Origin: Eledone cirrhosa
Taxonomy: Eukaryota
Direction: 5' to 3'
Length of the DNA: 64,000 nt
NCBI GenBank assembly: GCA_964016885.1
Contig: OZ024752.1
Location: 12,400,001 to 12,464,000 of the forward strand
A model generated the notes under the pieces. It ran no database searches, was not told the DNA's origin, and saw nothing but the letters and a program-made list of their open reading frames with translations. Both the position numbers and the translations under genes were made by a program. Position 1 is the stretch's first letter. Each line of letters opens with the position of its first letter. Positions 17,590 to 31,244 of the stretch are shown here, in pieces.

Positions 17590-17642
17590 AGGCTTCTACA
17601 GGACTAGAACTGTTTCATTCGGAAGAAATCATCAGGAAGCCT
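17590..17642 (-). ncRNA. Type I hammerhead ribozyme, family A (complete)
   Basis: aggcttc CTGATGA t-ttc-ttcc-gaa-t GAA ACAG ttctagtc CTGT A gaagcct: 7-bp stem I and GUA cleavage triplet. It folds back into a + strand copy at 17641-17686. Confidence 0.85.
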
Positions 17643-17711
17643 GATGGTTTCTCCCGAATGAAATAGTTCTAGTCCTGTAGAAGCCTTTCTATATAAAATA
17701 TATATATATAT

Positions 17712-17905
17712 AGCAAAGATAGACAAACACGGATATATAATTATGTGTTCAAATCACAGGGGAAAGAAACCGGTGTCCCTTGTGATTTGAACACATATAG
17801 TTATATATCCGTGTTTGTCTCTCTTTACTGTAATATAAAGCTCGGAAAAAATTTTTCCTTGAGCTATTTTGATTTTAGGGGACTGTTGTGAGTTATTAAC
17901 TCACT
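17712..17905 (+). mobile_element. Fold-back pLTR-like cassette (family P) with hammerhead 3' half
   Basis: Inverted arms at about 17712-17762 and 17776-17830; GAA ACCGGT at the apex; bulged hairpin at 17840-17864; TA-rich flanks. Confidence 0.65.
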
Positions 17906-18301
17906 ATATACTTTTGATATATATATGTGTCTGTGTATATATATAAATATATATATATATCTTAAGTATGGTCATTTGGTACCCGGTAAGGGTAATTAGA
18001 CTCATACCAAGGTGAAAATGATCCTCTTCTGAGTATAAAGCATAACTGGGTATCGATGCCTCCCAGATGGACGTCAATACGAGAAGCGATACTTAAACTT
18101 GACTGAGTGGTTGGTCAACTCTTCGAGCCTTGACTTTAAAATGTCGAGTGTGGGTGCGTCAACTATTTCTTGTTTGAGGTTGTCCCAGTGATAAATCGAA
18201 ACAATTGTCTTTCATCAAATAAATGTTTCGAAGGAACTGTGACATCGAATTATTCAAATGCTGTTGTGAAATACATCTTTCATCTTCATCAATAGAATAG
18301 A

Positions 18302-18339
<38 letters not shown>

Positions 18340-18374
18340 AAAGAATAGAGGTGTAACACACAAGTTATTATATA

Positions 18375-18766
18375 TTGGTAAACGGAATAGAAAATGCTGA
18401 CAAATTGTTCACAGTTGAAAAATGGTTTAATTAGGAATAAAAGAGTATTAGTGATTGTATGGGTTAGTATTCAGTTGTGGTTTTAAGTTTTTAAGTTTTT
18501 ACCGGTTGCGCATTTCTAAATGCTTTTCAAAAATAATTTTGAGATAGAGTGTCCGTGCTGTTTGCTCTGATCAGAGCAAACAGCACGGACACTCTATCTC
18601 AAAATTATTTTTGAAAAGCATTTAGAAATGCGCAACCGGTAAAAACTTAAAAACTTAAAACCACAACTGAATACTAACCCATACAATCACTAATACTCTT
18701 TTATTCCTAATTAAACCATTTTTCAACTGTGAACAATTTGTCAGCATTTTCTATTCCGTTTACCAA
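18375..18766. repeat. Perfect spacerless 392-bp palindrome with TA-rich flanks (family M)
   Basis: Apex TCTGA|TCAGA at 18570/18571. A single arm recurs at 38795-38992. Confidence 0.95.
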
Positions 18767-18779
18767 TATATATATATAT

Positions 18780-18950
18780 ATAGGAACGAGTAGGACTGAG
18801 CTCAAGCCGTTTCGACGGCTAATTCTGGACTAAATTAGTTCAGAATTACCCGTCGGGGTCCTACTCGTTCCTATTATCCACTCTACTACCCTAAGTATTG
18901 AGTACTTTGGTGCGTTATGGTCAATCTGGTTCCTTACCACATTTCCTTCG

Positions 18951-18951
<1 letters not shown>
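18780..18951 (+). mobile_element. Fold-back pLTR-like cassette, family N
   Basis: Homologous to 30910-31096 and 33812-33985. Carries a hammerhead 3' half (GAA ACGG...CCGT C, best seen at 31078-31100) and the hairpin at 18880-18906; (TA)n flanks. Confidence 0.75.
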
Positions 18952-18990
<39 letters not shown>

Positions 18991-19208
18991 GAAGTATTTC
19001 CGTAGGAAAGGTAAAGGAAAAGATATATATATATATATATATATATTCATTTTATTAGCTAAATATGGTGTTTCTAATTGCTAATACTCTCTATCGGTCG
19101 CAACGCCAGGTAAGAAGGAGCAACGTGAAATAAAGTGTCTTGCTCAAGGACAACGCATCGCCTGGTCCGCGAATCCAATTCTCTAACCACTCAGCCACGC
19201 GCCTCCAA

Positions 19209-19262
<54 letters not shown>

Positions 19263-19502
19263 ACACGGGTGTGTATGATTGTGTATAGAAGATTATATTA
19301 ATAAAAGGAATTCCAACTTTGTCTGATTTACTCGTTTTATTTACAATCCTTTAAAATTTATAATGGTATTAGAATGAAATAGCATGATAGAATATTAAAT
19401 GTTAAGTGTTAATTGAACAAGTACTTTCATGCTTTCGCAATCTTCAAGTTCATAAGGTTTTCAACAGTTGAAAATTGCAAACTTGACTGTCACCACACAT
19501 TA

Positions 19503-19541
19503 TGAACCTGAAGATTGCGAAAGTATGAAAGTACTTGTTCA
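19503..19541 (+). ncRNA. Type I hammerhead ribozyme, family D; inverted copy at 19414-19452(-)
   Basis: tgaac CTGAAGA t-tgc-gaaa-gta-t GAA AGTACT T gttca, with palindromic stem III. It lies within an inverted repeat, 19294-19455 versus 19500-19660. Confidence 0.85.
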
Positions 19542-19653
19542 ATTAACACTTAACATTTAATATTCTATCATGCTATTTCATTCTAATACCATTATAAATT
19601 TTAAAAGATTGTAAATAAAACGAGTAAATCAGACAAAGTTGGAATTCCTTTTA

Positions 19654-19690
<37 letters not shown>

Positions 19691-20339
19691 TAGTAGACCA
19701 AAACCCAGTTTCTAATATTCAATAATGTTGTGACTATTACTTTAATAAATATATGTTGTATGCTTATTAGTATAAATATAAATATGTATATAAACGTTTG
19801 TTTGTTTTCTTTTTACGATCAATACGAAACTGAATTTACGATATATGATGAATTATTTAGAAGTGGAACATCGACAACATATAAGAAGAGAAAAAAACAA
19901 TACATTAAACAATATAATGAAAATAAACAGACAAACCATTAAAGTGGTGATTGTTTCGCTATTCATCACGATAGATTTGTTTACCAAATCCTAGAGTGAG
20001 CTGATTGTCGACTGAACCACTAACTCTCAATCGCCCACGTAAATAAAACAATAACAGGTCCTTGCAGTACGGTTTTAAAAACAAAATTATTCCTCTCCGT
20101 TAATCTTCGGAATATTCCGTAATCAGTTGAATCACGTTGATGTTTTTCGTTTTTGTTTTGTCTTTTATTTATTGTTTTTTTTTTATTTCCTATAACGTCA
20201 TGAGGACATGTGTTCAATTGAAACCAGCTGATCACTAAGGTACAATAACAACTTCCTCATTTCGTATCGAAATAAGGTCACAAACTGTGACTAACCAACC
20301 TCTTCTTAATATATATCAACGGAGCTTCGTCGGTGTCGA

Positions 20340-20510
20340 CGATCAATGTTTCAGTTGTTCGATCAACGGAACAGCCTGTTCATGAAATTAACTTGTAAGT
20401 GGTTGAGCATTCCATAGACACGTGTATCTACAATGTAAATTCTTAGGAGGATCCAACATGACTCACAGTGAGACAAAACTGGTTGCTCCTTTCAATAGCA
20501 GGTACAGTCC
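20340..20510. mobile_element. SINE-like interspersed repeat fragment
   Basis: GATCAACGGAACAGCCTG...GAAATTAAC..G.AAGTGG.TGAGCA.TCCA.AGACACGTGTA resembles a common octopus repeat. This is from recollection only; it is single-copy here. Confidence 0.4.

Positions 20511-29337: not shown

Positions 29338-29340
<3 letters not shown>
27805..29340. mobile_element. ~700-bp-arm fold-back Penelope-like 3' end (family C) with a hammerhead in each arm
   Basis: Arms at about 27805-28525 and 28595-29255; (TA)n on the right; hammerheads at 27850-27920(-) and 29144-29214(+). Confidence 0.85.
29144..29214 (+). ncRNA. Type I hammerhead ribozyme, family C
   Basis: tattttat CTGACGA [long stem II] GAA ATGCGCAT A ataaaata: perfect 8-bp stem I and palindromic stem III. 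Confidence 0.9.
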
Positions 29341-29381
<41 letters not shown>

Positions 29382-29382
<1 letters not shown>

Positions 29383-29551
29383 GTTATTCCGGGGTGAATC
29401 GGAGGTAACCACAGTAAATAAGGTACTCAATACATAGCAGAGTATAAAAGTTTTAATATAGATGAGATTCTACAGGACTAGAACTGTTTCATTCTTTAGA
29501 AATCATGATGATTTCTAAAGAATGAAACAGTTTTAGTCCTGTAGAATCTCA

Positions 29552-29556
<5 letters not shown>
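29382..29556 (-). mobile_element. Family A fold-back cassette with apex inside the hammerhead core
   Basis: ...GAAATCAT G ATGATTTC... joins two inverted hammerhead 3' halves; bulged hairpin at 29425-29443(-). Confidence 0.8.
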
Positions 29557-29585
<29 letters not shown>

Positions 29586-29651
29586 AGTGGTTACACAACA
29601 GTTAGTTCACCATACCGAGAACAATTGTTTCACCTTAGCGGATCCTCTAAG

Positions 29652-29689
29652 CGAGCTGAGGATCCGCTAAGGTGAAACAATTGTTCTCG
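29652..29689 (+). ncRNA. Type I hammerhead ribozyme, family O, in fold-back cassette 29586-29788
   Basis: cgag CTGAGGA t-cc-gctaa-gg-t GAA ACAATTGT T ctcg; arms 29586-29647 versus 29658-29721. Confidence 0.9.
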
Positions 29690-29784
29690 GTATGGTGAAC
29701 TAACTGTTGTGTAACCACTTCTACCTAACTCGTCCCATGGACTGAGTGCTCTACCACTACGGGTATTACCTTCCAGTGTTCTAC

Positions 29785-29845
<61 letters not shown>

Positions 29846-29849
<4 letters not shown>

Positions 29850-30402
29850 AAAGTTCTATTTAAAATTGTTGGGATACAACAAGTAAATATTTTTATAACT
29901 GATATAAAGCACTCGACAAGTATTTGGAGTAGATATACGATATTAATAAATGGAAACTATATTTATAAAACCATATTTATTTCATTATACATATTTCAGA
30001 GATACCAAATTAAATTATGGTATGCCTTCATCAGACAAAATACAATATATAACAGTTTTACAAATAAGCTTTGACGTACCCTTTTAAAATGCAACCATTA
30101 TTTTTGGAACCCATCTGGATAGTCCAGATGGCTTCCAAAAATAATGGTTGCATTCTTTCTTTCTTTCTTTCTTTCTCTCTTTCTCTCTTTCTTTTTACAA
30201 CTGTCCAAAATATTTTTTACTGCCAAATCAACTTCCCAAATGCAAGTCGATTGAAAAGTATGTCATATCTATTTATTTATAAGACTGTTTATATTGTATT
30301 TTGTCTGATGAAGGCATAACATATTGTTAATATGATATCCCTGAAATATATATAATGAAATAAATATGGTTTTATAAATATAGTTTCCATTTATTTAATA
30401 TC
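29846..30402. mobile_element. Family B inverted cassette with hammerheads at 29978-30042(-) and 30297-30362(+)
   Basis: tattttgt CTGATGA aggcata...ccct GAA ATAT(G/A)TAT A; internal hairpin at 30089-30153. Confidence 0.8.
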
Positions 30403-30536
30403 ATATATATATATATTTCCTTACCTTATAAAATTATGTTTTTTCACAAAAAAGTATTCTGTCTCTTATATATTCCATGTGCCATTACCAACCTCAATTT
30501 TCTCTATAACCTTCGTTTTGTGTAGAAAATTACACT

Positions 30537-30601
<65 letters not shown>

Positions 30602-30685
30602 GAAAAATTGAACAGGGACAGAACAGAGAGGCAGTACGATAAATGTTTATTAAATTCACGCTCAGGAGAGTGGGGGGTAGGTGGA

Positions 30686-30720
30686 GGACGACGTTTCGGG
30701 CATAAGCCCTTCTTCAGGTG
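30686..30720 (-). ncRNA. Minimal hammerhead motif, family G (weak stem I)
   Basis: CTGAAGA a-gggc-ttat-gccc GAA ACGT C. Confidence 0.7.
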
Positions 30721-30863
30721 AGAGTTCAAAAGGTGTGTAGGGGAGTGGTGGAGAGACATATAGCGAAAGGAAACGGTGCGAATGAAAAATTAACAAATAA
30801 AGACAAAAATATAATAAATAATAAATAAAAATAAAGCATGATCAAAATACAAGGAATGAGAAC

Positions 30864-30913
<50 letters not shown>

Positions 30914-31244
30914 GAAGGCGGTGTGGTAAGGAACCAGATGGACCATAACGCACCAGAGTACTCAATACTTAGGGTAGTAGAGTGGGTAATAGGAAAATGT
31001 TTAACCCCGACGGCAGAGCTCAAGCCGTTTCGACGGCTATTTCTGGACTACCCCAGACTAGTCCAGAAATAGCCGTTGAAACGGCTTGAGCTCTTCCGTC
31101 GGGGTTAAACATTTTCATATATATATATATATATTTATTTTTTCTTTCTTTCTCCCTTTTCTCTCTCTCCGTCTTTTTTTCTCTCTCTCCATCTTTTTCC
31201 TTCTCTGTAACACAACGACTTACTAATATAAGTAAACAACTCCA

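Follow-up and report, generated by a model that had tools for sequence, protein, structure and literature searches.

Head-to-head PLE insertions in Eledone cirrhosa: family-specific 5' stops and a probable origin by twin priming

The window analysed here, a 64,000-nucleotide stretch of Eledone cirrhosa DNA, holds a Hydra-type PLE together with fold-back insertions assigned to families that we name by letters (Table 1). The fold-backs named in a preliminary description, at 17575-17701, ~18783-18953, 29460-29554, 29585-29720 and 30993-31116, with further ones at 17703-17837, 19294-19661 and 58960-59103, were all found. The arm 5' ends, measured from the hammerhead cleavage site (position 0, negative numbers being 5' of cleavage), also place the apices at 17640, 29506, 29650 and 31053 as had been described. 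The family D apex had been put just 5' of stem I; one arm ends at -37, but the other extends to ~-71. Two insertions in the window are counter-examples to an apex at the ribozyme: the 1.45-kb palindrome of family R (27806-29259), with its centre ~650 nt upstream of the cleavage site, and the family Q junction at 30121, ~135 nt upstream of the minus-arm cleavage site. At 58960-59103, direct inspection showed the tailed arm joined to the inverted arm via an extended stem I; in some junctions, this one included, ribozyme stems seem to supply microhomology.

Table 1. Features of the window; arm 5' ends are relative to the hammerhead cleavage site
Feature	Position	Strand	Remarks
Family A, tailed arm (outer site a)	17506..17640	-	minimal type I hammerhead, core 17635, cleavage after 17597; 5' end -44 (pair ends in stem I and core)
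Family A, short arm (inner site b)	17640..17706	+	5' end -40; head-to-head junction ~17638
Family P fold-back	17703..17895	tailed arm on +	hammerhead searched for, not found
Family M perfect 404-bp palindrome, loop-free	18369..18772		apex 18570/18571; ribozyme not assigned; outside all counts
Family N pair	18783..18953	short arm on -, tailed arm on +	short arm to -45, tip of stem II
Family D pair	19294..19661		hammerhead core 19508 (+)
Hydra-type PLE, 5'-truncated, frameshifted	21911..24459	-	RT 23770-24459, endonuclease 23120-23824, long 3' UTR, hammerhead core 21954
Family R pair, arms ~720 bp	27806..29342		hammerheads 27912 (-) and 29152 (+); centre ~28530-28560
Family A pair	29384..29554		apex 29507 within core; arms -36/-38
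Family X pair	29585..29796		core 29656 (+); loop 29648-29657; arms -28/-32, core and stem I
Family Q insertion	29799..30411		hammerheads 30034 (-) and 30305 (+); junction ~30121
Family N pair	30911..31116		apex ~31054; arms -42/-42, tip of stem II
Family Q complex insertion	31244..31702		tail-to-tail palindrome (apex 31401) and tailed fragment
T-like family	58899..59103	tailed arm on -	whole hammerhead, core 59058, cleavage after 59003; 33-bp inverted arm 59071-59103

The analysis supports the earlier proposal that these insertions are of PLE origin, target (TA)n and represent genuine genomic inversions. (TA)n targets, an optional tail and an inverted 5'-truncated copy were all found, and the 719-aa frame of L272, a full-length genomic relative of the RT in the window, carries the motifs RWK, DKT, CxCX5C, CxxC and CxH together with an endonuclease at its C-terminus. 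A Pfam search with this frame returned no match; among the atlas neighbours of the protein, part have GIY-YIG. Judged by these motifs against the definition in the sections of PMC8557442 covered, the elements fit a Hydra-clade PLE with a putative C-terminal endonuclease of the GIY-YIG type. An assignment to Neptune was rejected; the motifs are Hydra-type. Family T alone is tied to a Hydra ORF; A, N, V, X, D, Q and R, which resemble it in end structure, are candidates for such a link. Non-LTR retrozymes, described in the part of bioRxiv 10.64898/2026.07.22.740005 covered as tandem monomers with a hammerhead in each, do not match the named copies, which are single head-to-head pairs.

Because Rfam reported no hammerhead family, and mostly hairpin look-alikes, hammerheads were sought with a structure scanner, which was also run on reversed sequence as a control. 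It returned 178 hammerhead motifs in 1.41 Mb against 4 in the control, and the motifs are thus beyond chance occurrence. A type I hammerhead was found in the pLTR, apart from family M, to which none was assigned, and family P, where it was absent from the four longer copies inspected, so that the stem III position given earlier for the family P apex is only putative; family V has a changed core. In family N, a search with the canonical-core pattern gave 0 matches because the core is a U3-A8 variant, which is present only in read-through copies.

We surveyed 105 head-to-head pairs from 11 families (A, N, V and X, together with Q, Q4, R, S, T, D and U). The tail-selected Q loci came from a search intended to extend family A upstream, which matched the family Q tail, and the young T2 subfamily was left out of the mapping, having too few copies in the sample. 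Most of the 14 references have two discrete 3' ends; N1 and N3 are without a tail, and T and U have few copies. One arm ends at the inner and the other at the outer fixed 3' site in 96 of the 105 pairs, bearing out the earlier remark that one arm is usually longer. Full-length copies have the order hammerhead, site b, site a and ORF start, and a hairpin is predicted within ~10 nt of site b in 8 of the 10 tails folded. The arms differ by substitutions, as had been noted (median divergence 5.4%, 89 pairs), and in 75 of these 89 pairs an arm is nearer to its own partner than to the median other copy (5.4% vs 12.2%). The 64 abutting junctions comprise 26 with overlap, 10 blunt and 28 with 1-6 extra bases. 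The palindromes are real head-to-head insertions of PLEs, probably of Hydra type, in (TA)n, and at least 66 pairs, counted in the mapped families only, occur in 1.6 Mb of randomly placed stretches. Extrapolated to a 3-Gb genome, this would amount to ~120,000 small palindromes.

The inner ends of the arms are not uniformly distributed, in agreement with the clustering reported earlier, and gather at a sharp 5' stop that is specific to each family. The reported location of the apices at the ribozyme holds for A, N, V and X (73/77 pairs) but for only 2 of the 28 pairs in the other seven families. Most arms that reach the stop window end there in A (32/41), N (63/75), R (10/12) and X (6/9), and 12 of 28 do so in V; these windows were picked post hoc, after data inspection. 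Downstream of them, the corresponding value is <0.1 per 10 nt. The stop bases are A -45, N -41, V -46 and R -124. Stem I has its 5' edge exactly at the stop in A and V and no more than 2 nt away from it in X. The N stop falls within the 3' strand of stem II, near the tip, the D stop precedes stem I by ~36 nt, and the R stop is at the foot of a predicted hairpin. Q, S, T and U have ill-defined stops. Several apparent clusters are reference artefacts: V -142, S -167 and D -59 were traced to reference divergence, as probably were T -13 and Q -57 to -60. The distance of the stop from site b is 58-69 nt (four families) or 137-311 nt (seven families), which speaks against one fixed ruler for all of them.

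Among 27 arms, 14 carry an additional G just ahead of the stop base, compared with 28 of 153 elsewhere. The G excess is modest, with p = 0.0004 when the comparison is with ends whose reference base is a pyrimidine and p = 0.03 when it is with all non-G references (77/243), and the test includes one duplicated row and uses positions taken from the same data and eyeballed beforehand. By comparison with consensus motifs, a TATA box lies 30 nt upstream of the family A stop and N1 and N2 have TATA variants, with none in V and R; the initiator is matched in 4 of 12 references, three of which are related N subfamilies. In public reads, the read/contig depth over a read-through N1 copy falls ~20-fold across the stop. 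The top contig loose end of N1 is at -41, the first loose letter is a sense G in 4 of 4 runs, and most N1 strand-switch joints lie at -32 to -42. Family N strand-switch joints occur in contigs and raw reads of two studies, including raw Illumina reads of the second; this support is at the level of the family and from PCR-based libraries, rather than from long reads at the window locus.

We propose that the pairs arise by twin priming on one RNA, with the far ends of the two cDNAs joined and these ends most likely marking the capped 5' end of the RNA; judged from the sequence evidence, we give this reading a probability of about 0.6. Both arms have defined priming sites, and there is little microhomology at the joint. 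Both nicked target strands would prime reverse transcription at two fixed start sites of the RNA, using the 5' copy of these sites, which would lie ~60-70 nt from the transcription start in A, N, V and X and ~140-190 nt in D, Q, R, S and T. Copying would run off the capped RNA 5' end, giving a strong-stop product. The second polymerase may then displace the first cDNA, leaving arms that overlap in sequence, and end-joining with 0-7 nt of microhomology would unite the two cDNA ends. The junctions would strike the ribozyme because it is located between the promoter and the start sites. Such a promoter model does not predict that the stop of A and V, and approximately that of X, should coincide with the edge of stem I, and this coincidence counts against it. 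In addition, loop orientation could have been flipped after insertion, or the arms homogenised by conversion.

That same coincidence would be accounted for if twin priming acted on an RNA whose 5' end results from trimming of a longer or cleaved RNA, halted at the folded ribozyme or another structure, and the hairpin foot at the R stop fits this as well. The N stop inside stem II and the D stop upstream of stem I do not, however, and the extra G is compatible with a cap, so that trimming is an unlikely source of the end. The edge might alternatively be inherited, if a few short truncated or palindromic masters were transcribed from flanking DNA and copied repeatedly. Inherited edges exist: four copies of V begin at a common edge, -93, and are alike in the letters upstream of it. 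As an explanation of the stops in general this is nevertheless rather improbable: 104 of the 105 junction strings are distinct, the letters upstream of the A and N stops vary among copies, and three N subfamilies with differing upstream sequence stop at the homologous base.

In the proposal of the preliminary description, the inversion site is set by the ribozyme: the RT would stall on the hammerhead, either folded or cleaved, and then switch to its own cDNA as template. The apices in A, N, V and X and the possible pairing across stem I at 58960-59103 are what this would produce, yet the model is already largely refuted and we regard it as very unlikely. A stall on the cleaved ribozyme is not supported, in view of the depletion of arm ends at the cleavage site, where 14 of 351 fall within 3 nt against 28.9 expected under uniformity. 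Nor is a stall on the folded ribozyme supported: at the stops, which are located on the far 5' side of stem I, at its edge, or close to the stem II tip, the helices have already been passed, and 26 of the 28 pairs of Q, Q4, R, S, T, D and U stop outside the ribozyme altogether. A switch onto the growing cDNA would leave the loop in the tailed arm. This is the case in 12 of the 64 abutting junctions, but in 40 the inner, tail-less arm extends further 5' (12 ties), and a single self-folding cDNA is rejected for this reason. (A first count of this asymmetry, 49 vs 24, was affected by reference mismatch and was replaced by the count on abutting junctions.) The short arm also ends at a fixed rather than a random site, and in full-length copies the junction with the inverted arm is 800-1200 nt away from the ribozyme.

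A head-to-head palindrome would likewise result from self-priming on an antisense template, as was proposed for the same junction type in rotifer PLEs in the part of PMC3846280 covered. The in vitro priming described in the sections of PMC11167929 covered, however, uses sense RNA and two sites. Antisense self-priming also leaves unexplained why each pair has one inner and one outer sense-strand start site, and it is very unlikely here. Fold-back chimeras are a known artefact, but the arm divergence, the fixed asymmetric ends and the joints found in contigs and raw reads of two studies make an assembly or library origin extremely improbable.

Palindromic PLE junctions as such are known (PMC3846280, in the part covered), and the origin of inverted and tandem PLE structures is termed open in the covered part of PMC8557442. 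Literature searches, with most subscription journals and supplements outside their scope, returned no map of PLE inversion breakpoints and no PLE strong stop; nor did they return a 5' stop with a cap-like G. The supplements of PMC11167929 and PMC8557442 may bear on these points. The present counts separate three models from sequence alone, rejecting ribozyme-driven fold-back and supporting two-ended priming, and they name the stop bases given above for A, N, V and R as the exact positions at which capped RNAs would be expected to start. If twin priming to the cap is true, the roughly 100,000 mini-palindromes of the genome would map the transcription start of each family, and the family N start would lie inside the ribozyme and leave a capped mRNA unable to cut itself.

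Retroviral strong-stop DNA is a short cDNA that is primed internally, close to the 5' end of the RNA, and the proposed short PLE cDNA resembles it in this respect. The sharp stop and the untemplated G, in modest excess, are consistent with a retrovirus-like PLE strong stop, in which both strands would be primed at the 5' copy, run to the cap and be joined as a short palindrome; we put this forward tentatively, at slightly worse than even odds, from the junction sequences. The closest described relatives are the Hydra clade of C-terminal EN+ PLEs (Craig et al. 2021, PMC8557442), which in the sections covered share the RT and endonuclease motifs, the (TA)n targets, the hammerheads, the inverted 5'-truncated copy and the optional tail. 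The tails differ (~64-95 nt in the Eledone cirrhosa families vs 30-40 bp), and a breakpoint map and a 5' stop, both mapped here, are absent from those sections. The Adineta vaga PLEs of PMC3846280 have the same head-to-head inverted pLTRs, junction palindrome and tail at one end; in the part covered they are explained by antisense self-priming, whereas the geometry of the arms in Eledone cirrhosa suggests two primed cDNAs with a sharp stop. The Anolis Poseidon PAc nicks and extends both strands in vitro, the tail being delimited by two internal RT start sites, and does not require ribozyme cleavage; it belongs to a different clade, and product joining and the in vivo 5' end lie outside the sections of PMC11167929 covered. 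In D. virilis Penelope, the start site falls within the pLTR and precedes an intron whose end is at helix I (PMC2377424 and PMC4209133, as far as covered). Finally, L1 twin priming, in the covered parts of PMC11702581 and PMC9341517, shares with the pairs described here the primings on opposite strands, the end-joining and the extra G at a complete 5' end, which in full-length L1 is a mark of cap copying. The L1 arms represent non-overlapping parts of the RNA and start at poly(A), whereas the PLE arms overlap as a palindrome and begin at fixed internal start sites.

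The fold-backs reported for the window were confirmed at the places given by the preliminary description. The hammerheads are genuine motifs, with 178 counted in 1.41 Mb against 4 in the reversed sequence used as a control. In families A, X and N of short Penelope-like elements (PLEs), the palindrome apex, or turn-around point, does lie in stem I, the core or the stem II tip. The family N core is a U3-A8 variant, visible only in read-through copies, which continue past the apex region; this variant is known from Schistosoma PLEs (PMC4209133). No ribozyme was found in the four longer family P copies examined. 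Two structures in the window run counter to an apex within the ribozyme. A family R palindrome of 1.45 kb has its centre about 650 nt upstream of the cleavage site, and a family Q junction lies about 135 nt upstream of the corresponding site. The genome (animal, 3.0 Gb) is AT-rich, and (TA)n runs are numerous in the window.

Features located in the window, with related copies
Position	Feature	Remarks
14090-14305	Fold-back	102-bp arms, one mismatch
18369-18772	Family M palindrome	404 bp, perfect, loop absent; apex seen again in sampled locus L123 (~700-900)
23120-24459	Broken Penelope-like ORF	
25468-26001	Endonuclease fragment, second PLE family	68% identical, inverted relative to 23120-23824 fragment
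31244-31702	Family Q palindrome	Tail-to-tail, opposite of usual orientation; apex ~20 nt past cleavage site; tailed fragment adjoins
36233-38362, 46324-49071, 60280-63978	LINE-type RT frames (Pfam RVT_1) and broken Helitron	
38779-38992	Family M copy	Ends, at 38992, at the same place as the 18369-18772 apex
41366-41763	Inverted pair, tRNA-like	175-bp arms; Rfam tRNA at 41468-41538, 41591-41661; not a ribozyme family
51249-52122, 55192-56740	Tandem arrays	

Arm ends were mapped onto 14 single-copy references, with position 0 at the predicted cleavage site and numbering along the ribozyme strand. Letters N, P and D are those of the preliminary description, and the remaining letters were assigned here. 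The sample (2.0 Mb in total) consisted of 160 random 10-kb stretches and loci from four DNA searches. Family A copies centred in the ribozyme-anchored and upstream-anchored searches were excluded before counting, as were duplicates, arms less than 150 nt from a locus edge and arms falling short of the inner 3' end (site b). The mapped set, which leaves out families M and P, yielded 495 counted arms, comprising 105 head-to-head pairs (abutting within -45 to +60 nt, inside the reference) and 285 solo arms.

The 5' ends of arms cluster at a sharp, family-specific base, here called the stop (A -45, N -41, V -46, R -124). Among arms reaching a 10-nt family window, chosen post hoc after inspection of the data, those ending inside it numbered 32/41 in A, 63/75 in N, 10/12 in R, 12/28 in V and 6/9 in X. 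Across A, N, V and R (80 pairs), the furthest arm lay no more than 5 nt from the stop base in 54. In public data, depth over a read-through N1 copy falls about 20-fold across the stop and most strand-switch joints fall between -32 and -42; the best-supported upstream loose end of whole-genome contigs on this copy is exactly -41. Read ends in RAD libraries pile up at -46, which is probably a restriction cut; the contig run is therefore the cleaner witness. Four family V copies (L160, L176, L246, L264) have the same 5' edge, at -93, and resemble each other in the letters upstream of it; they are probably a truncated master sublineage.

The preliminary description attributed the clustering to reverse transcriptase (RT) stalling on the folded or cleaved hammerhead and switching onto its own cDNA. 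The clustering stands, as a family-specific stop, but the ribozyme does not stand as its cause. In A, N, V and X, whose site b lies 18-36 nt from the cleavage site, 73 of 77 pairs have the furthest arm end within the ribozyme; the share inside is inflated because the pair criterion misses long-armed junctions (sampled loci L013, L272 and L274, and the window's R copy). The corresponding count is 2 of 28 in Q, Q4, R, S, T, D and U (site b 40-124 nt away), and in 23 of these 28 the furthest end lies over 15 nt 5' of stem I. Random stretches only gave 46/49 and 2/17, respectively. In the predicted folds of A and V the stop coincides with the 5' edge of stem I, and in that of N it lies near the stem II tip; on this modelling, the stops are not where RT would first encounter a helix. 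Inverted arms in two full-length copies join 800-1200 nt from the ribozyme.

In most references the 3' ends fall at two discrete places: site b, the inner one (+18 to +124), and site a, the outer one. The segment between them is the PLE tail, which was shown in vitro to be bounded by a pair of RT start sites (PMC11167929). In 96 of the 105 pairs, an a arm is joined to a b arm. Since a self-folding cDNA cannot acquire an uncopied tail, a single-cDNA model requires the loop on the tailed arm. However, in 40 of the 64 a/b junctions that abut, it is the tail-less arm that extends further 5' by 3 nt or more, against 12 in which the tailed arm does (23 and 4 at a 10-nt threshold), which argues against a cDNA switching onto itself. 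Later flipping of the loop may also have altered which arm carries it, and conversion may have made arms more alike. The 64 junctions showed 1-7 nt of overlap in 26 cases, were blunt in 10 and carried 1-6 added bases in 28. The partner arm was closer than the median other copy in 75/89 pairs, with V (3 pairs) as the exception, and 104/105 junction strings were distinct, pointing to separate insertion events. The palindromes are thus independent of one another, and in each a single RNA was probably copied twice; we regard two-ended priming as very likely. In the tails of ten references, a short predicted hairpin starts within about 10 nt past site b in eight families and is a candidate RT positioning signal.

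Cleavage is not supported as the breakpoint: 14 of 351 arm ends fall 3 nt or less from the cleavage site, fewer than the 28.9 expected, and forward arms in six full-length copies have scattered start points, none of them at that site. The pattern first described is thus real, and the cause given for it wrong.

Full-length copies run ribozyme, b, a, ORF start, an order that places the start sites near the 5' end of the normal mRNA; the ORF link is established for family T only, and one full-length relative carries Hydra motifs. Full-length Hydra-type copies with a partial pLTR 5' of the ORF occur at L272, L274, L273 and L276; in the last, an inverted family Q tail precedes the partial pLTR, possibly a cross-family joint. 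In D. virilis, the start site of Penelope is located in the pLTR, 46 bp upstream of a 75-bp intron (PMC2377424), and this intron terminates at helix I (PMC4209133). RT priming at the 5' start sites of the mRNA would therefore finish at the cap. We propose, conditional on two-ended priming, that the stop is the capped RNA start (probability roughly 0.55-0.7, by our judgement). An extra G is a trace of RTs copying a cap (PMC11702581, PMC9341517). G precedes the A at the stop in 14/27 arms starting exactly there (one row duplicated), compared with 28/153 ends elsewhere that have a pyrimidine at this place in the reference (p = 0.0004) and 77/243 with any reference base other than G (p = 0.03). 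The loose letter adjoining -41 is a sense G in 4/4 runs, three of which share one study, and a TATA box lies 30 nt upstream of the family A stop. Against a capped start, initiator matches occur at the stop in only 4/12 references, three of them N; V and R have no TATA box; and the edge common to four V copies looks inherited. A capped start also does not explain why the stop falls on the edge of stem I in A and V and almost on it in X.

For PLEs, earlier publications (PMC8557442, PMC3846280) already describe tails, palindromic junctions and inverted copies truncated at the 5' end. The literature searched yielded no PLE breakpoint map or strong-stop model, and the pattern is a testable new form of this known PLE insertion structure.
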